Source: an uncultured Gemmatimonadaceae bacterium (GTDB lineage Bacteria; Gemmatimonadota; Gemmatimonadetes; Gemmatimonadales; Gemmatimonadaceae). Taken from it: a stretch of DNA of 64,000 bases. Position numbers and translations under genes: made by a program. Under the pieces are notes generated by a model that was given only the letters and a program-made list of their open reading frames with translations, searched no databases and had not been told where the DNA came from. Of the stretch, positions 4,500-31,474 are shown piece by piece. How positions within the stretch are numbered: position 1 is the stretch's first letter; every line of letters begins with the position of its first letter. The stretch covers positions 416,001 through 480,000 of the forward strand of contig CAWAGQ010000013.1 in assembly GCA_963781585.1 (NCBI GenBank), given 5' to 3'.

Positions 4500-6160
4500 C
4501 AGACCGTTTGCAGATACTGGTGGATCATGCTCACGGTGGCTGATCCCTCCCCGACCGCCGCCGCCACGCGCTTGCCCGACCCGTGCCGGGCGTCGCCAGC
4601 CGCAAAAACACCCGGCACACTGGTCTCGAAAAGGAATGGATCGCGCTCCAGCGTCCACGACTTGGGCCACTTGCCGTCGATCATGAGATCGCGCCCGGTG
4701 AGGATGAACCCCTGCTTGTCGCGCTCGACCAGCGCGGACACCATCGCGGTGCGCGGCGCGGTGCCGATGAAGATGAACATCGCGTTGGCCGGCACGTCCC
4801 GCATCTCGCCGGTCTCGACGTTCTTCAGGGTGATTGATTCGAGCCGTCCGTTCCCCCGCACACCGCAGACGACCGTGGAGGTCACCACGTCCACGTTGGC
4901 GGTATCCTGGATCCGGTCCACCAGATACTGCGACATCCCGGCGCTCAGCTTCGGACCCCGCAACAGCATCGTCACCTTGCGTGCATAACGCGAAAAGAAC
5001 ATCGCCCCCTGCCCGGCGGAATTGGCACCGCCCACCACGAACACATCGCAGCCGCGATAGGTGGTCGCTTCGGTCAGCGCCGCGCCGTAGTACACGCCGG
5101 ACCCCACCAGATCGTCCACCCCCGCCGCGTCCAGGCGCCGCACTTCCATTCCCGACGCGATCAGCACCGCGTAGCAACTGAGCTCGGAGCCATCCGACAG
5201 CGTCACGGTGCGGTAGGGGTCATTCCGCCGGATCTCCGTCACGTCCTGCACGGTGAGGATCTCGGCGCCAAAGCGGCGCGCCTGGGTCGTGGCCCGTCGT
5301 GCCAGATCGGCCCCGCTCACTCCGCCCGGGAATCCCAGGTAGTTCTCGATCTGCGAGCTCGTTCCCGCCTGGCCGCCGGGCGCCGTCCGCTCCACCAGGA
5401 TCGTGCGCAGTCCCTCCGACGCGCCGTACACGGCGCCCGCCAGCCCCGCCGGCCCGCCTCCAACCACGACCAGATCATAGAACGGCCGCTGGGGACGCGT
5501 CTGCATGCCGAGCCGCTCGGCGAGCGCTCTGGTGGTGGGTTGCACCAGGGTCGTTCCATCGGCGAAGAACACCACCGGAAGACGCGCCATGCCCTCCTCG
5601 AGCGATGTGACCAGCTCGCGCGCCGACGCATCCGTGTCGAGGTCGACCCACTGGTACGGCACCTGGTTCGATGAAAGAAAGTCCTTTACCACGTAGCTCG
5701 ACGCGGAAAGCGGCGTACCAGCCACTCGGATGCCGTCAAACGGCGGGCGAACTTTCGCCACCCAGTCGGCAAGGAGGTCATCGAGCACCGGGTAGAGTCG
5801 TTCGCTCGGTGGCTCCCACGGTTTCAGCAGGTAGTGGTCCAGGCCGATGCGGTTGATGGCGGTGATGGCCGTTTCGGTATCGGCGTAGGCCGTCAGCAGC
5901 ACGCGTCGTGCGTCGGGGTAGAGCTTGAGTGCCTCCACCAGAAACTGCGTCCCGGTCATTTCGGGCATGCGCTCGTCGACCAGAAAGAGCGCGATCGGGG
6001 CACTGCGCTTCTTCAGCTGACGCACCGTCTCGAGCGCCTGCGGCCCGGAGCCGACCTTGACCACGCGGTAGTCCGCGCGGAAGTGCTGACGCAGGTCGCG
6101 CTCGACGGCATTCAGGACTTCGGGGTCGTCGTCCACGGCGAGAATGACGGGCTTGTTCAT
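4499..6160 (-). CDS. Receiver domain / thioredoxin-reductase-like flavoprotein fusion
   Basis: REC (AVDDD, DERMP, LLKPW), then a glutaredoxin-like segment, then TrxB motifs GGGPAG, IENYLGFP, GGANSA, GVFAAGD. Confidence 0.9.
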
Positions 6161-22690: not shown

Positions 22691-24781
22691 TCAGGTCCCG
22701 GAAGCGGGGGCGTCGTCGAGGACGGTCCGCACGACGCGCGCCAGATCCTCCAGGGACCATGGTTTCTGCAGGACGGGCGCCGATCGCCCCTCGACGGCGC
22801 GCAGGTCGCGCTCCGAGTATCCGCTGGTCAACACAAACGGGACCATCACGCCCCGCGACCGCAGGGTCTCGAGCAACTCCACACCGCCCATCTTCGGCAT
22901 CACCGCGTCGGAGAAGACGAGTGCGATGCGCGCCGCATGCTCCAGGAACACGCGCAGTCCGTCCTCGCCATCCACCGCCGTGAGCACGGTGTATCCGAGA
23001 CGCCGCAGCGATCGCTCGGCCACGCTCCGGAGGAACGGTTCGTCTTCCACCACCAGGACGGTTTCGGTCCCTCCTCGTGGGGCCTGGCGGGGCGTCTGGG
23101 CTGCATGCGTCACCGCCCGGATCGGAAAGAACAGGCGGACGGTGGTCCCGTGTCCCGGCTGACTCGACAGGCTCAGGAAGCCTCTATGCTGCTGCATCAG
23201 ACCGAACACCATTGACAGACCGAGCCCGGTCCCCTCCCCGGCGGGCTTGGTGGTGAAGAACGGCTCCATCGCTCGCGCCAGCGTCCCCTCGTCCATGCCG
23301 GTACCGGTATCGATCACCGAGAGCGTCACGTATTCGCCAGGTGCACCGAGCGACGACTCGGGGTCGCCGGGCGAGACCCGGACCTGGTCGACGACGATGG
23401 TCACGGTTCCCCCGTCCGGCATGGCATCGCGCGCGTTGGTTGCGAGGTTGAACAGCATCTGCTCCACCGCGTCCGCGTCGGCCATGATCTGCGGCGTCTC
23501 GCGTCTCGACTCGGTCCGGATCTCGATGCTGGCGGGAATGAGCCGGCGCAGCGTGTCGGCCGCCTCGCTCACGATCTTGTCGATCCGCTCCGGCTGCGGA
23601 TTCACCTTCTCGTGCCTCGTGAAGGCGAGCAGCCGGCGGATCATCGCGCTGCCCCGGCGCACCGCCATCTCCATCTCGGTCAGATAGGTGCGCGACTCGT
23701 CGTTCCGGGTGCCGAGTTCGCTCTCCAGCAGTGAGGCGTTCGTCAACACGACGGTCAGCACGTTGTTCAGCTCGTGTGCGATCCCGCCGGCCAGGGTTCC
23801 CACCGCCTCGAGTTTCTGGGCCTGCTGCATCGCGCTCTGGGCCGCCCGGCGGACCGTGATGTCGCCGATGGAACCGAACATCCGCACCGCTTGGCCCGAC
23901 TCGTCAGGCAGGAACACGCCCTGGTCCTCGACCGTGACGTAGCTGCCGTCCTTCCGGGAAAAGCGGTATTCGGCGGCGAAGCTTCCGCACCGACGACGCG
24001 CATCCTCGAGCAGGGCGAGCGTCGTGGAGCGGTCCTCTTCGTGCACCATGGCGGTCCAGCGTGCCATGTCGAACGCCTGGAATTCCCCGGCGGGAAACCC
24101 GGTCACCCGCTCGATGGCGCCGAACCACTCGATGCGCCCGTTGGACACATCGTAGTCGTAAATGACCTTGCCCGTCTGCTCACTGGTGACCCGATATCGC
24201 GCCTCGCTTTCCCGCAGCGCCGCCTCCATCCGCAGGCGTTCGCCCAGCTCGCGTTCCTTGTCCGAAAGCGTGGACTGCAGTGCGCGCGACAGCATCTGCA
24301 GTTCGCCGACCTTGTCCTCGAGCTCGCGCACCAGCCGCTGGTTGTACGCCTTGAGAAAGACGCGCTCGTCGGGAACTGCGGGAGCGTCCCGATGAGTCGG
24401 CGTCTGGCGGGCGAGGCGCCGGCGCCCCAATGTCGTGATCGTGCTGAGCAGGACCTCGGGATCCACCGGTTGCTCCAGAAACCGGTCGGCTCCGAGCGCG
24501 AGGGCGCGCTCCTCGTCCGCCGGATCGGTGTGCGTCCCCGTCAACACCACGAAGGGGATGCGCTGCCACCTGGGATGCGCCTTGACCGCGCGGCAGAGCT
24601 CGAAGCCGTCCATCTGCGGCATCAGGACGTCGGAAATGACGACGTCGACCCGTTCGCGAGCCAGCATGTCGAGCGCCTCGACGCCGTTTGTTGCCCACAC
24701 CACCTCGAGCCCGCGCTCGGTGAGGAGCGTCTGGAGGTGGCGCCGGTGTTCCTGGTGGTCGTCGACGTGGAGGATTCGCAT
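22691..24781 (-). CDS. Hybrid sensor kinase REC-PAS-HisKA-HATPase-REC
   Basis: MRILHVDD...SDVLMP, PAS/PAC, IAHELNN, NARDAM, FFTTK, C-terminal VVEDE...LQKPW. Confidence 0.92.
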   Translation of the reverse strand: MRILHVDDHQEHRRHLQTLLTERGLEVVWATNGVEALDMLARERVDVVISDVLMPQMDGFELCRAVKAHPRWQRIPFVVLTGTHTDPADEERALALGADRFLEQPVDPEVLLSTITTLGRRRLARQTPTHRDAPAVPDERVFLKAYNQRLVRELEDKVGELQMLSRALQSTLSDKERELGERLRMEAALRESEARYRVTSEQTGKVIYDYDVSNGRIEWFGAIERVTGFPAGEFQAFDMARWTAMVHEEDRSTTLALLEDARRRCGSFAAEYRFSRKDGSYVTVEDQGVFLPDESGQAVRMFGSIGDITVRRAAQSAMQQAQKLEAVGTLAGGIAHELNNVLTVVLTNASLLESELGTRNDESRTYLTEMEMAVRRGSAMIRRLLAFTRHEKVNPQPERIDKIVSEAADTLRRLIPASIEIRTESRRETPQIMADADAVEQMLFNLATNARDAMPDGGTVTIVVDQVRVSPGDPESSLGAPGEYVTLSVIDTGTGMDEGTLARAMEPFFTTKPAGEGTGLGLSMVFGLMQQHRGFLSLSSQPGHGTTVRLFFPIRAVTHAAQTPRQAPRGGTETVLVVEDEPFLRSVAERSLRRLGYTVLTAVDGEDGLRVFLEHAARIALVFSDAVMPKMGGVELLETLRSRGVMVPFVLTSGYSERDLRAVEGRSAPVLQKPWSLEDLARVVRTVLDDAPASGT

Positions 24782-24879
24782 GGGCGGCGGGGACCGTTCG
24801 CGAGAGCCCGGTGGGCGCAGTCCGCTCACCAGTTATCGGCACCCGCGCCCGACAACTTGAGCCTGCCCCGGGCTGAGCG

Positions 24880-25332
24880 CTACGCGACCGTGCGCACGTT
24901 CACGCGAACGTCTTCGGTCGCGACCGCGACCGTGCCGTAGAGGGGTCAACGCCTCTTGAATCCCTCGACCAGTGCGGCCGCCTGGTCGTCGTCTGTGCCC
25001 GCAATCTCGAAATCGAGGCGGACCGAGTTGAAGAGCGTCACGTCCGTACGTGACTGCCGGGCACGGTCCAGTACGCCCTCCACGCGAACACTCGCCCGCG
25101 CCAGGGGAACGTTCGTATCGCGCGCGATCACCTGGAGCAGTTCGACCCCGCATGACGCCACCGCGGAGAGAAACACCTCCGGCGGCGTAAGCTCCTCACC
25201 CGGGCAGCCATTCTGCACCGGACCATCGACGATGAAGTGATGATCCCGCGCGCTGCACAGGACGCGGCCGAGGGTGTCGGTGGAGCTCGCGTGGACCAGA
25301 TACTCGCGAATGGTGGTCGCTGGCGCGTTCAT
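24880..25332 (-). CDS. OsmC-family protein, probable selenoprotein (UGA at 24946-24948)
   Basis: TPPEVFLSAVASC carries the first OsmC Cys. The frame continues KRR-TGA-PLYGTV to TAG 24880, with TGA at the second-Cys position and a SECIS-like hairpin downstream. Confidence 0.8.
24915..24932 (-). promoter_or_regulatory. Putative bacterial SECIS element
   Basis: Minus-strand CGGTCGC-GGTC-GCGACCG: perfect 7-bp stem with GGUC loop, starting 14 nt after the UGA. Confidence 0.7.
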
Positions 25333-25366
25333 GTGACGTGACTCCGGGTTGTGGGCAGACATTGCA

Positions 25367-25864
25367 TCAGTCGAACTCCCGTCGCGGCGCTGATTGCTCT
25401 GGTCCCACTCGCCCCACAGCGATCTCCGCGCGGAAGTAGTTCTCGCCGCGCACCGGCACACCGGCCAGGCGGCGCAGCAGCGTGATCTGTCCCACATGCG
25501 TGAGGGCATCGGCGATCGGGCCCTGGAAGAGTGCCCCCGCCGGACACGCGAGCGCCTCAGCGGAGGCGAGAAACGCGTCCAGCGCCGAGAGCCCGACGAA
25601 CAACCGATCGACGCCGTCGCTCCACGGAAGTGGGTCGGAATCCTTCCACACCTGTTGGCCGCGTCCGAGCCAGATGGCCCAGTCCAGCAAGTCGCCGATG
25701 TGGGCGAGAATCTGACCAGGTGTCCGGGTGGACGGGCCGACCTGAAACGTGGCGAACGAATCCGGTGCGCCGCGTACCGCCTTGGCACCACGATACGCCA
25801 GGGTGGCGACGGTGTGGCGGAGTAGCCGCCGTGCGGCGTCGTCGCGCGCGTGGGCGTCGCTCAT
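25367..25864 (-). CDS. DinB-like hypothetical protein
   Basis: QILAHIGDL and DALTHVGQITLLRRLAG His-helix pattern. Confidence 0.7.
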   Translation of the reverse strand: MSDAHARDDAARRLLRHTVATLAYRGAKAVRGAPDSFATFQVGPSTRTPGQILAHIGDLLDWAIWLGRGQQVWKDSDPLPWSDGVDRLFVGLSALDAFLASAEALACPAGALFQGPIADALTHVGQITLLRRLAGVPVRGENYFRAEIAVGRVGPEQSAPRREFD

Positions 25865-25922: not shown

Positions 25923-26507
25923 TCAGGCGGTAAGCGCCGGCGGGTGACCGGGCGATCCGGCACCCCGGCTCTGCACCGCGATCGCCGATTGTCCCATCGA
26001 ATCGATCCTCGATACCGCGAACACCAGGTGCTCATAGCCGTGGAACATCGTGGACCGTTCGGGAGCCATCCCGATTTTACGCGCCACGCCCTGCGACGGA
26101 AGATTCTCCGGACGAATCATCGAGATCACCCGATGCTTGTCGAGCTGTGCGAAGGCGAAGCCGCGCACCGCCAGAGCAGCCTCCGCGGCGTACCCACGCC
26201 TCCAGCAGGGTCGGTGGATCAACCAGCCGATCTCGGGCTCGCGCACCCCATCCACCGTCTGCATGGCGAGGCCCACGGCCCCCACCGGCGCCTGGTCGCC
26301 GGCCAGCGCCACCAGCCAGAGCCCGTGGCCGTCCACGGCATAACGACGGAGCTGGCGGTCCAGCCACTCCTGCGACTCGGCTCTGTCGTATTTCTTCGGA
26401 TAGAAGCGCATGACCTCCTCGTCGCCGAGCAGTGTGGCGACGAAGTCGAGGTCCCGGATGGTGAATTCCCGCAATATCAGGCGCGGGGTGGCGATGATCG
26501 TCTTCAC
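25923..26507 (-). CDS. GNAT N-acetyltransferase (RimJ/RimL type)
   Basis: TPRLILREF, EIGW, WRRGYAAEAA, ENLPSQGVARKIGM. Confidence 0.88.
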   Translation of the reverse strand: MKTIIATPRLILREFTIRDLDFVATLLGDEEVMRFYPKKYDRAESQEWLDRQLRRYAVDGHGLWLVALAGDQAPVGAVGLAMQTVDGVREPEIGWLIHRPCWRRGYAAEAALAVRGFAFAQLDKHRVISMIRPENLPSQGVARKIGMAPERSTMFHGYEHLVFAVSRIDSMGQSAIAVQSRGAGSPGHPPALTA

Positions 26508-26818: not shown

Positions 26819-28621
26819 GTGCGCCCAACCGACGTCAGCAATCCGAAGTATTACCACAAGGTCGTCGACTGCCAGTGGGCATGTCCGGCGCACACCAACG
26901 TCCCCGAGTACATCCGGCTCATCGCCCAGGGACGTTACACCGACGCGTACATGCTCAACCGGGAATCGAACGTCTTTCCGGGAATACTCGGGCGCACCTG
27001 TGATCGCCCGTGCGAGCCGGCCTGTCGGCGCGGGCGGGTGGACGGCAAGCCGGTGGCCATCTGTCGGCTGAAGCGGGTCGCCGCCGATCTGCGCGATGAG
27101 TTCCGGCATCTGTTGCCGCCGATCCCGCCGGACAGGAACGGGAAGCGCGTGGCCCTGGTCGGCGCGGGACCGGCGTCGCTGACGGTCGCCAACGATCTCA
27201 TGCCGTTAGGCTACGAGTGCGTCATCTTCGAAAAGCTGTCGCGCCCCGGCGGATTGATGCGCATCAACATCCCGTCGTTCCGGCTGCCGGCCGCGGTGCT
27301 GGATGAGGAGGTGGACGTCATCCTGACGATGGGCGTCGATATCCGGTATGACGCGCCGATCGCGAGCATGAGGGCGCTGCTCGACCAGGAGTTCGACGCG
27401 GTCTTTGTCGGAAGCGGGGCGCCGAAGGGGAAGGAACTCGAGGTCCCTGGCCGGCACGACACCGACCGGGTCCACATTGGTATCGAGTGGCTGGCCAGTG
27501 TCCATTTCGGACACGTCGACGCCATCGGCCAGCGGGTCCTGATCATCGGCGTGGGGAACACCGCCATGGATTGTTGCCGGACGTCGAAGCGGCTGGGGGC
27601 CACCGACGTGAAAGTCATGGCGCGGCGGACGCGCCAGTACTTCAAGGCGTCGCCGTGGGAGCTCGAGGATGCCGAGGAAGAGCAGGTGCAGATCATCGAG
27701 AACCACGCCCCGAAGCGCTTTCTGGTCGAGCAGGGCCGTCTGGTCGGGATGGAGTTCGAGCAGCTGCGCTGGACGCGCGCGGCCGACGGACGGCAGAAGA
27801 GCGAAGCGGTGGGCACGGTGACCATTCCCTGCGACGACGTCATCCTTGCCATCGGGCAGGAGAACGCCTTTCCGTGGATCGAACGCGATATCGGCGTGGA
27901 ATTCGACGAGCACGACATGCCGGTGGTGGATCGCATCACCTTCCAGAGTACGCGACCCGGTGTGTTCTTCGGCGGCGATGCGGCCTGGGGACCCGAGAAC
28001 ATCATCTGGGCGGTGGAGCATGGGCACCAGGCGGCCATCTCCATCCACAACCATTGTATGGGGATGCCGGTGGACGACCGCCCCGGGCAGGGGATGACCC
28101 TCGCGAGCGTGAAGCTCGGAATGCACGCCTGGCAGTACAGCAACGACTACAACCCGGCGCCGCGCCAGAAGATGATCCACGCCGACCTCGAGAAGCGGTT
28201 TGCGCGCCTGTCGGTGGAGGTCGAGCTGGGATTCACGCCGGAACAGGTGACGCGGGAGGTGGAGCGCTGCCTCAATTGCGACATCGAGACCGATTTCACC
28301 GCCGGGTTGTGCATCGAGTGCGACGCCTGCATCGACGTCTGCCCGGTCAACTGCCTGACGATTGCGCCGGATGGGGAGGAGGCCGATCTGCGCGCGCGTC
28401 TGTCGGCCCCGGCCGGGAATGTCGACCAGGACCTCTACGTGTCGGCGGCGCTGCCGCAGACCCGGCGGGTGATGGTGAAGGACGAGGACATCTGCCTGCA
28501 TTGCGGCCTCTGCGCCGAGCGCTGTCCGACCGCCGCGTGGGACATGAAGCAGTTCCAGCTGGTGCTGCCCTACGCAGGAAACGCCGCCGGCGGTCAGCTG
28601 ACGGTGCTTGGTCAACCCTGA
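26819..28621 (+). CDS. GltD-like FAD/NAD(P)H oxidoreductase with C-terminal 2[4Fe-4S] domain (KorC-like)
   Basis: CQWACP, GRTCDRPCEPAC, GAGPAS, GVGNTAMD, CIECDACIDVCP, CLHCGLCAERCP. Confidence 0.88.
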   Translation: MRPTDVSNPKYYHKVVDCQWACPAHTNVPEYIRLIAQGRYTDAYMLNRESNVFPGILGRTCDRPCEPACRRGRVDGKPVAICRLKRVAADLRDEFRHLLPPIPPDRNGKRVALVGAGPASLTVANDLMPLGYECVIFEKLSRPGGLMRINIPSFRLPAAVLDEEVDVILTMGVDIRYDAPIASMRALLDQEFDAVFVGSGAPKGKELEVPGRHDTDRVHIGIEWLASVHFGHVDAIGQRVLIIGVGNTAMDCCRTSKRLGATDVKVMARRTRQYFKASPWELEDAEEEQVQIIENHAPKRFLVEQGRLVGMEFEQLRWTRAADGRQKSEAVGTVTIPCDDVILAIGQENAFPWIERDIGVEFDEHDMPVVDRITFQSTRPGVFFGGDAAWGPENIIWAVEHGHQAAISIHNHCMGMPVDDRPGQGMTLASVKLGMHAWQYSNDYNPAPRQKMIHADLEKRFARLSVEVELGFTPEQVTREVERCLNCDIETDFTAGLCIECDACIDVCPVNCLTIAPDGEEADLRARLSAPAGNVDQDLYVSAALPQTRRVMVKDEDICLHCGLCAERCPTAAWDMKQFQLVLPYAGNAAGGQLTVLGQP

Positions 28622-30422
28622 CGTGATCAACGACTTCTGCTTCAAGATCGCGACCGTGAACGGCACCGGCTCCGCCAGTGCCAACGGACTCCTCATGCAG
28701 GCGATCTTCCGCATGGGAATCCCGGTGGTCGGGAAGAATGTCTTTCCGTCGAACATCCAGGGTCTGCCCACCTGGTACGAGATCCGGGTGAACAAGGACG
28801 GCTACACGGCCCGGACCGCCCCGTTCGATCTCATGGTGGCGATGAATCCGTCCACCTACGCGCGGGACGTGGCCGACATCCGTCCCAGCGGCTGGCTGCT
28901 CTACGACTCCTCGTGGCCGATGCCGAAGGAACTGCTGCGCGACGACGTCATCGTGCTGGGCGTCCCATTCGGCCAGATGTGCAACGAGACGTTCCAGGGC
29001 GATCGCGAGCGCACGCTGATGAAGAACATCGCCTGCGCGGGCGCGCTGGCGGCGCTGCTCGACATCGACATGGACGTGGTCCAGGAGATGCTGGAGGAGA
29101 AGTTCGCCCGCAAGAAGAGCCTGCTCGAGTCGAACCACAAGGCGATCCGGCTCGGCTACGACTACGCGACGGCGCACTTCGCCTGTCCACTGCCGATCCG
29201 TCTGGAGCGCATGGACGCCACCAGGGACAATATCCTGATCGACGGCAACACGGCCGCCGCGTTAGGCTGTGTCTACGCCGGCGCCACCGTCGGCGCCTGG
29301 TATCCGATCACCCCGGCCACCTCGCTGATGGAGAACTTCAAGGCCTTCTGCGAGCGTTTCCGTGTGGAACCGGAGACCGGCAAGCGCAGATTCTGTATCG
29401 TGCAGGCGGAAGACGAGCTGGCCGCGGCCGGAATCGTCATCGGCGCCGGCTGGATGGGTGCCCGTGCCTTCACGCCCACCGCCGGGCCGGGCATCTCGCT
29501 CATGAGCGAGTTCGTCGGCCTCGCGTATTACGCCGAGGTCCCGGCTGTGTTCTTCGATGTGCAGCGCACCGGCCCGTCCACCGGCATGCCGACGCGCACC
29601 CAGCAGGCCGACCTCCTCTCGATCGCGTTCCTCTCCCACGGCGACACGCGCCACATCGCCCTCTTCCCGTCGTCGCCCGAAGACTGCTTCTACATGGCGG
29701 GCCAGGCCTTCGACCTGGCCGAGCGATTCCAGACCCCGGTGTTCGTGGTCTCCGACCTGGATATCGGGATGAACGACTGGATGTGCCGGCGCCTCACCTG
29801 GGACGACAGCTATCGACCCGATCGCGGCAAGGTCCTGTCGGCCGAAGAGCTCGACCAGCTCCCGCGGTTCTACCGATACCTGTCGAACAACGGCGACGGT
29901 GTGGCGGCCCGCACACTTCCAGGCGTCCACCCCAAGGGAGCGTATTTCACGCGGGGGTCGGGGCACAACAAGTTCGGCGCGTACACCGAGGACGACGCCG
30001 AGTACCGGGAGGTCGTCGACCGGCTGGCCCGCAAGCTCGACGCGGCGGCGCGGGCCGTGCCTGAGCCGGAGATCATCCGGCAGGACGGCGCGGAAGTCGG
30101 CGTGATCACGATCGGGAGTTGCCGCGGCGCGGTGCTCGAGGGACTCGACCGGCTGCGCGAACGCGGTGTCGCACTCGACTTCATGCGCGTCCGGGCGTTC
30201 CCGTTCGGTCCGGCCGTGCTCTCGTTCGTGCACTCGCACGAGCGGTGCATCGTGATCGAGCAGAATCGTGACGGACAGCTCCGGTCACTCCTGCTGCTCG
30301 ACAGCGGGGTGGCGGGAGAACGGCTGCTCTCGGTGCGCGACTACGGTGGATTCCCGCTCGGCACCAATCGTGTCATTGAAGGCATCGTGGGCGAGCTCGA
30401 AGGAGTGGGAGTGCACGCATGA
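28608..30422 (+). CDS. korA: 2-oxoacid:acceptor oxidoreductase alpha subunit
   Basis: NGTGSASAN, YPITPATS, QAEDELAA, QRTGPSTGMPT. Confidence 0.88.
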   Translation: MVNPDVINDFCFKIATVNGTGSASANGLLMQAIFRMGIPVVGKNVFPSNIQGLPTWYEIRVNKDGYTARTAPFDLMVAMNPSTYARDVADIRPSGWLLYDSSWPMPKELLRDDVIVLGVPFGQMCNETFQGDRERTLMKNIACAGALAALLDIDMDVVQEMLEEKFARKKSLLESNHKAIRLGYDYATAHFACPLPIRLERMDATRDNILIDGNTAAALGCVYAGATVGAWYPITPATSLMENFKAFCERFRVEPETGKRRFCIVQAEDELAAAGIVIGAGWMGARAFTPTAGPGISLMSEFVGLAYYAEVPAVFFDVQRTGPSTGMPTRTQQADLLSIAFLSHGDTRHIALFPSSPEDCFYMAGQAFDLAERFQTPVFVVSDLDIGMNDWMCRRLTWDDSYRPDRGKVLSAEELDQLPRFYRYLSNNGDGVAARTLPGVHPKGAYFTRGSGHNKFGAYTEDDAEYREVVDRLARKLDAAARAVPEPEIIRQDGAEVGVITIGSCRGAVLEGLDRLRERGVALDFMRVRAFPFGPAVLSFVHSHERCIVIEQNRDGQLRSLLLLDSGVAGERLLSVRDYGGFPLGTNRVIEGIVGELEGVGVHA

Positions 30423-31474
30423 CATCGATCACCAAGCCACGGGTCCACCATCCGTCCCTCAAGCAGAACGCGCTCGGGCTCACGCGGCGCGATTACGAGG
30501 GATCGATGTCGACCCTCTGCGCCGGGTGCGGACATGACTCGATCACCGCAGCCATCGTCCAGGCGTTCTGGGAGCTGGAGATCCCGCCGCACCGGGTGGC
30601 GAAGCTCAGCGGCATCGGCTGCTCGTCGAAGACCCCGGCGTATTTCGTCTCGCAGGCGCACGGGTTCAATTCGGTGCATGGGCGCATGCCGGCGGTGGCC
30701 ACCGGCGCCAACGCCGCCCATCGCGATCTCTACTACATCGGGATCTCGGGGGACGGCGATTCGCTGTCGATCGGGCTGGGCCAGATGTGCCATGCCATTC
30801 GGCGCAACGTGCGGCTGGTGTACGTGCTGGAGAACAACGGCGTCTACGGCCTCACCAAGGGACAGTTCTCCGCCTCCGCCGACGTCGGCTCGAAATCGAA
30901 GAAGGGTGAGCCCAACGTGCAGACGCCAATCGACCCGGTTCTGCTCGGCCTCACCCTCGGCGCCACGTTCGTCGCCCGCAGCTTCTCGGGCGACAAGGCC
31001 CAGCTGGTCCCGATCCTGAAGGCCGCATTGCGTCACGGCGGGTTCGCGCTGGTGGACGTCATCTCGCCGTGCGTCACCTTCAACGATCACGAAGCGTCCA
31101 CCAAGAGCTACCTCTACACGCGACAGCACTACCACGAGGTGGCAGCGGTGGACTTCGTGCCGCTCCGGCGGGAGATCACCGCCTCATATGGAGATGGCGA
31201 TACACGCGTCGTCACGATGCACGACGGCAGCGTCGTCAAGTTCCGCAAGCTCGCCCCTGACTACGATCCGACCGATCGCGAGGCCGCATACCATTTCGTC
31301 CGGCGGGCGCACGAGAACGGCGAGGTGGTGACCGGCCTGCTCTACATCGATGAGACGGGAGCGGACATGCACGCCGTCAACAAGTCGTCCGACACGCCGC
31401 TGGTCGAGCTACCGTATGAAGCGCTCTGTCCGGGGAGTGCCGCCCTCGCGACACTGATGGAGGAGTTCCGGTGA
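30419..31474 (+). CDS. korB: 2-oxoacid:ferredoxin oxidoreductase beta subunit
   Basis: LCAGCGH, SGIGCSS, HGR, GDGD...NNGVYGLTKGQ, SPCVTFN. Confidence 0.9.
   Translation: MTSITKPRVHHPSLKQNALGLTRRDYEGSMSTLCAGCGHDSITAAIVQAFWELEIPPHRVAKLSGIGCSSKTPAYFVSQAHGFNSVHGRMPAVATGANAAHRDLYYIGISGDGDSLSIGLGQMCHAIRRNVRLVYVLENNGVYGLTKGQFSASADVGSKSKKGEPNVQTPIDPVLLGLTLGATFVARSFSGDKAQLVPILKAALRHGGFALVDVISPCVTFNDHEASTKSYLYTRQHYHEVAAVDFVPLRREITASYGDGDTRVVTMHDGSVVKFRKLAPDYDPTDREAAYHFVRRAHENGEVVTGLLYIDETGADMHAVNKSSDTPLVELPYEALCPGSAALATLMEEFR

Follow-up and report, generated by a model that had tools for sequence, protein, structure and literature searches.

Results

An OsmC-fold gene whose reading frame continues past an in-frame TGA

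The window analysed in this work, a 64,000-nucleotide stretch of a contig from an uncultured Gemmatimonadaceae bacterium, encodes on its minus strand a small protein of the OsmC/Ohr fold with a TGA codon inside its reading frame (Table 1). The frame opens with the ATG at 25332-25330 and, under translation table 11, ends at the TGA at 24948-24946, directly after the residues FKRR; if this TGA stands for selenocysteine (Sec129), the frame spans 25332-24880 and encodes 150 amino acids, reading on the minus strand ...GFKRR-TGA(24948-24946)-PLYGTVAVATEDVRVNVRTVA-TAG(24882-24880). The initial annotation of this DNA had claimed that the frame runs on past FKRR-TGA to a TAG and that the gene would be annotated as truncated, and both claims hold: the public database protein for this gene consists of exactly residues 1-128. 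With read-through, the Pfam OsmC profile (PF02566, cut-off 27.5) scores 46.3 bits, compared with 32.4 for the frame ending at the TGA. Among relatives, the tail beyond the Sec/Cys column measures 20-30 amino acids in 41 loci with TGA and 18-21 in five loci with a Cys codon. Judging from the sequence, the 128-aa public gene call likely cuts the protein short, just before an active-site residue.

The surroundings of the gene comprise a hybrid histidine kinase just downstream (22691-24829, minus), a 165-aa ORF 34 nt upstream (25367-25864, minus), a GNAT acetyltransferase also upstream (25923-26507, minus) and, at 26819-31474 on the plus strand, an Fe-S flavoprotein followed by the alpha and beta subunits of a 2-oxoacid:ferredoxin oxidoreductase. 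The 165-aa ORF has no Pfam or NCBIfam match and presumably resembles DinB-like helical proteins; the bleomycin acetyltransferase matches of the GNAT protein lie far under the cut-off (55.6 vs 625). Clustering of the neighbourhoods of 46 loci revealed no common partner gene, with the 165-aa ORF beside the OsmC-fold gene in five loci and a GNAT gene in three, and because the neighbourhood is unconserved across these loci it gives no functional hint. A promoter and terminator scan at the locus returned nothing informative.

Table 1. Coordinates of the OsmC-fold gene, its predicted active-site codons and its downstream hairpin in the window, and of the first-cysteine TGA loci in other genomes
Feature	Position	Strand	Basis
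CDS, 150-aa OsmC/Ohr-fold protein with predicted Sec129	24880..25332	-	Reading frame, Pfam OsmC, structural model, Foldseek
In-frame TGA, predicted Sec129, second (resolving) OsmC/Ohr cysteine column	24946..24948	-	Alignment
TAG, predicted true stop, 21 codons past the TGA	24880..24882	-	Reading frame
SECIS-like hairpin, 7-bp stem, +14 to +31 after the UGA, -12.0 kcal/mol	24915..24932	-	Folding; conserved
Apical loop GGUC	24922..24925	-	GGUC in 39 and AGUU in 2 of 41 TGA loci
Cys61, first OsmC/Ohr cysteine (peroxidatic column)	25150..25152	-	Invariant, 76/76; aligned to the Ohr central-helix Cys
Cys43, extra cysteine, N-x-C-P-G loop ahead of the central helix	25204..25206	-	76/76 in alignment
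Cys26, second extra cysteine	25255..25257	-	72/76
Arg23 (Gly-Arg motif), possible equivalent of the catalytic Arg in Ohr	25264..25266	-	76/76
GGAG, Shine-Dalgarno-like, 9 nt ahead of the ATG	25342..25345	-	Read from sequence
First-cysteine TGA loci (other genomes)	L045 G041:C356:10534-10869; L048 G039:C87:461625-461969; L114:287-730 G059:C205		

Cys and TGA share one column among homologues

Among the 120 homologues listed of 5817, 75 have Cys in the column of residue 129, 44 end just before this column and one has Trp. At the nucleotide level, 57 loci were examined, from which one not reaching the column, one that was too short and nine duplicates were dropped; the remaining 46 distinct loci comprise 41 with TGA and five with TGC or TGT at the column. 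The OsmC-fold gene was found in 71 of 301 genomes of the family, with one TGA in 64 of them, no stop in six and a cut by the contig end in one. The TGA was confirmed at the column in all 35 of the 64 one-TGA genomes whose loci were fetched, and a genome of the same genus likewise has TGA there. A phylum-level search matched seven of 301 genomes, every one of them in the host's family. In a set of 150 distant representatives (653 at E 0.001), 32 proteins stop at the column, and Cys occupies it in each of the 67 stretches that cover it.

The residues around Sec129, U-P-L-Y-G-T, fit the C-P-x-x-x-T/S pattern and align to the second OsmC/Ohr cysteine, in agreement with the initial reading of the UGA as a replacement of the second catalytic Cys; the Cys/Sec pairing that was to be sought by aligning homologues is evident both in the listed proteins and in the codons of the 46 loci. 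A tree of Sec and Cys forms (171 rows and 122 columns, built by a quick method; 71 of its 165 forks are open, and truncated proteins were entered as Sec by assumption) shows eight to nine Sec/Cys changes, but its starred branches force only one, and it thus fixes neither the direction nor the number of Sec origins.

A conserved hairpin follows the TGA

A perfect 7-bp stem had been reported to begin 14 nt downstream of the UGA, and the stem with its GGUC loop indeed begins with the 14th base past the TGA and occupies 24932-24915. The constraints of the bacterial SECIS model are a loop of 3-9 nt, a stem of 4-16 bp, G in the first two loop positions, a UGA-to-loop distance of 16-37 nt and a minimum free energy of at most -7.5 (PMC13188914); the hairpin satisfies all of them, with a loop of 4 nt starting with GG, a stem of 7 bp, a distance of 20 nt and -12.0 kcal/mol. 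The proposed likeness to the SECIS of E. coli fdhF stands in part. Both elements have a GGUC loop and a GC-rich upper stem soon after the UGA at a similar spacing, but the spacing is not identical, the loop beginning at +21 here and at +19 in fdhF, and the fdhF stem is bulged whereas the present one is unbulged. An Rfam scan of 24600-25500 returned one chance match and no SECIS family.

In single-sequence folding the hairpin is unexceptional (z of -0.14, -0.63 and -1.28 at three lengths), and when its 15 codons are recoded synonymously at random, all seven pairs arise in 19% of cases and the inner six pairs with an RGUY loop in 5%. The conservation of the hairpin across relatives goes well beyond chance. 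The inner six pairs are kept in all 41 TGA loci, one inner pair varying among G-C (26 loci), A-U (9) and G-U (6), a two-sided change being confined to this one of the seven stem pairs; 97.9% of the stem cells pair in these loci, compared with 16-60% in slid controls. Six four-fold-degenerate sites within the hairpin are 95-100% fixed, compared with 33-75% for nine such sites upstream. The peptide encoded under the hairpin matches one pattern in 41/41 TGA loci but in only 4/75 Cys proteins, and none of the five Cys loci keeps all seven pairs or the GGUC/AGUU loop.

The host encodes selenocysteine machinery, and most TGA genomes have selA

The initial annotation implied selenocysteine use in this host, and the genes on which such use depends are present, each scoring over its cut-off: tRNA-Sec (68.7 bits vs 47), SelA (564 vs 268), SelB (330.8 vs 242) and SelD (364 vs 125), with selD itself holding an in-frame TGA. 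This selD lies at C4:506107-507221 and is followed within about 100 bases by the tRNA-Sec gene; selA and selB are on the same contig, C4. The window belongs to contig C13, whose tetranucleotide correlation with C4 (r 0.9987) is the highest among the 16 other contigs. The host assembly amounts to 5.7 Mb and is 93.5% complete and 7.2% contaminated; the contig pairs C5/C8 and C2/C6 share their tRNA sets and have near-identical sequence contexts, which suggests a partly duplicated or two-strain assembly. ARAGORN also called a tRNA with a stop anticodon (tta) at C14:156433-156507, minus strand, which has a non-canonical look and is probably a false call.

Across the family, 57 of the 64 TGA genomes yielded selA (10/10, 2/2 and 45/52; in two only as pieces under the cut-off), among them all 37 TGA genomes with a completeness of 90% or more and a contamination of 5% or less. 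The seven TGA genomes in which selA was not found are 71-88% complete, except for one that is 97% complete and has tRNA-Sec. As a background, selA occurs in 15 of the 23 genomes of the family that do not carry the OsmC-fold gene, a count that takes in an unpublished genome (G008), and in three of six genomes with the Cys form; in two Cys genomes neither selA nor tRNA-Sec was found. No test statistic is attached to this co-occurrence because related genomes are not independent.

Genome-wide scans for further Sec codons in the host were crude, the strict version keeping 10 of 84 candidates and missing SelD and the loose one giving 251 candidates, mostly false. Two other TGA genes were observed, each with a hairpin after the TGA. 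One, on C2 (TGA at 124790, plus), encodes a SelT/SelW/SelH (SelW/Rdx-type) protein of 78 aa with a CxxU motif (NF041051, 89.8 vs 88). The other, on C12 (TGA at 5682, minus), encodes a BCP/PrxQ peroxiredoxin (161 vs 140 when read through) in which the TGA takes the peroxidatic position (TPG-U); the stretch read has no further Cys three residues on, and the gene probably encodes a selenoprotein.

Fold and candidate active-site residues

The AlphaFold monomer model, computed from the 76-row alignment with U entered as C, has a pLDDT of 88.9 and a pTM of 0.79 and positions one helix and the final strand beyond residue 129. The best Foldseek match is 1lql (E 1.4e-9, TM 0.80), and several Ohr chains follow at TM 0.6-0.7; the Pfam score, the fold and the two cysteine columns all place the protein in the PF02566 superfamily. 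In Xylella Ohr, Cys61 is peroxidatic and Cys125 resolving, acting with Arg19 and Glu51 (PMC5962072), and Cys61 and Sec129 of the present protein align to these two cysteine columns. Arg23 is matched to the Ohr GGR motif by a weak global alignment only, at a probability of 23%. The column of the Ohr catalytic Glu (position 51) holds Ala in 69, Ser in four and Pro in three of 76 sequences, and one residue later there is an invariant Glu52. Of the extra cysteines, Cys43 is replaced by Phe in one of 41 TGA loci and is missing from many distant relatives. Five distant relatives (P0122, P0146, P0155, P0165 and P0166) contain two to four tandem OsmC domains, and several such proteins have signal-peptide-like N-termini and fusions to YdhR or cupin domains.

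Relation to known selenoproteins and to other members of the fold

The statement of the initial annotation that OsmC-like selenoproteins are known is correct since 2005, but those catalogued represent a different form, with Sec at the first cysteine. A selenoprotein family named "OsmC-like protein", with the motif UxxT, was described by Zhang, Fomenko and Gladyshev in 2005 (PMC1088965), and its entry is unaltered in the lists of 2008, 2022 and 2026 (PMC2398784, PMC9312934, PMC13188914). AACY01145085, from the 2005 supplement (PMC1088965), has U at residue 40 and retains the second Cys at 111; MCS5647933.1, a representative in the deep-Sep supplement, likewise has Sec at the first cysteine with the second retained. 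The UxxT proteins and the one described here have in common the PF02566 fold, a single Sec from an in-frame UGA, a downstream SECIS-like hairpin and Cys-containing homologues. They differ in that the two published UxxT sequences have Sec at the first (peroxidatic) Cys, whereas here Cys61 is kept and the predicted Sec takes the second (resolving) position, within a UPLY motif. Selenocysteine at the second cysteine is a form absent from the catalogues consulted, and no description of a second-cysteine OsmC selenoprotein was found in the literature searched, which took in few subscription journals and PMC13188914 apart from its supplements.

The Sec129 OsmC-fold protein does not represent a new type of system. 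The NCBIfam model NF041052 (OsmC-related (seleno)protein), which we take to be the model of the UxxT family, misses it, with 35.6 bits vs a cut-off of 95, and has no member over the cut-off in 61 relatives, in 401 genomes of the phylum (0/401) or in E. coli. A different, YhfA-type OsmC-like protein, encoded in three neighbouring-family genomes, carries its TGA in place of the first cysteine (U-M/T-S-M-T; Table 1). A hairpin follows the TGA in both of the two loci that were folded, selA is present in all three genomes, and the protein of locus L114 scores 57.2 vs 95 against NF041052.

With Ohr (TIGR03561) the Sec129 protein shares the fold and both cysteine columns, and it may share the Gly-Arg motif; unlike Ohr, it scores only 23.8 vs a cut-off of 88.85, has Ala, Ser or Pro in the Glu column and two extra cysteines, and places Sec at the resolving position. 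The best sequence and fold matches are the YhfA/COG1765-type proteins (PMC8945050; PDB 2pn2 and 1lql), which have the same two-cysteine OsmC fold and P-x-E ahead of the central helix and, according to PMC8945050, have neither the Arg nor the Glu of Ohr and are still uncharacterised. Identity to them amounts to 11-25%, and the Sec129 family differs in its invariant Gly-Arg and in having Sec.

Discussion

Taken together, the sequence data make it well supported that the predicted selenoprotein is real and mis-annotated as truncated. The internal UGA is very likely decoded as selenocysteine, and we are equally confident that SelB carrying Sec-tRNA-Sec would bind the GGUC hairpin and insert Sec at this codon; when insertion fails, RF2 would stop translation and give the 128-aa product. 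With the UGA read as Sec with the help of the hairpin, the Cys61-Sec129 pair would likely serve the reduction of peroxides in an OsmC/Ohr-fold protein, and by analogy the protein is probably an Ohr-like homodimeric peroxidase, its homodimeric state, substrate and reductant being those expected from the family. The catalytic steps are the least certain part of this scheme and are put forward tentatively, with a little less than even confidence: Cys61, beside Arg23, would attack the peroxide as in Ohr, Sec129 would resolve the oxidised Cys61 to form a selenenyl-sulfide whose re-reduction is fast, and electrons would be relayed by Cys43 in the loop, perhaps by Cys26.

It is conceivable, though unlikely, that the roles are swapped, with Sec129 attacking the peroxide and Cys61 (or Cys43) acting as the resolving residue. 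Most selenoenzymes use Sec for the attack, the host BCP has it at the peroxidatic position, and the Glu by which Ohr activates its first cysteine is displaced here; MsrA offers a described case of Sec as the attacking residue (PMC13188914). However, Cys61 and Arg23 are invariant in 76/76 sequences and 75 close homologues among the 120 listed have plain Cys at position 129, which suggests no need for changed chemistry.

We likewise consider it improbable that Sec is inserted into a protein that is not a peroxidase and instead uses its four Cys/Sec residues for thiol-disulfide exchange, as a sulfur or selenium carrier or for metal binding. The conservation of these four residues, the P-x-E in place of the Ohr P-E-Q, the uncharacterised OsmC-like proteins among the closest solved relatives, the uncharacterised status of YhfA-type proteins (PMC8945050) and the distant relatives in which tandem OsmC domains are joined to YdhR or cupin domains would all agree with such a role. 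Yet the Ohr and OsmC branches are described as peroxidases in PMC8945050 and PMC5962072, and Ohr matches are absent from the host at E 1e-25 and present in only 2 of 101 genomes; the missing Ohr match in the host leaves the peroxidase role open to the Sec129 protein.

A bolder proposal, which we regard as rather doubtful, is that these proteins are widespread uncatalogued OsmC-fold selenoenzymes in which Sec at the Ohr resolving position attacks and a loop cysteine, not lipoyl proteins, recycles it. If true, then together with the first-cysteine TGA form of neighbouring Gemmatimonadota families it would mean that selenium was recruited independently to each end of one redox pair, and nature would have set up a test of the reason for which Cys gives way to Sec.

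That the TGA is a true stop, reflecting a truncated protein, a pseudogene or an assembly error, is very improbable: TGA does end 1025 of 1682 long gene-like ORFs in the host, where it is the commonest stop, and RF2 is present, but the same TGA recurs in 64 genomes of the family, a genome of the same genus also has it, and the 20-30 codons past it are conserved and, in the model, specify the final helix and strand. Since the abundance of TGA stops and the presence of RF2 indicate that UGA is not generally recoded in the host, the only UCA-anticodon tRNA listed there is of the Sec type, and the 67 distant stretches covering the column have only Cys, a reading as Trp or Cys by a changed code or suppressor tRNA has a negligible probability, and the Trp of the single database protein P0004 probably reflects the gene caller's choice of code.

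For the preferred reading, Sec129 at the second cysteine column of a likely peroxidase, the immediate consequence is a systematic annotation error, as 44 of the 120 listed database proteins (of 5817), the entry for this gene included, are cut just before the active-site residue. The protein also adds a selenoprotein form beyond those in the catalogues consulted, and Gemmatimonadota were not found in the main texts of these catalogues where searched. Close Sec and Cys versions of the protein coexist, and a different OsmC-like protein in other Gemmatimonadota has a TGA in place of its first cysteine; this set makes possible a direct test of what selenium contributes at the resolving versus the attacking position.
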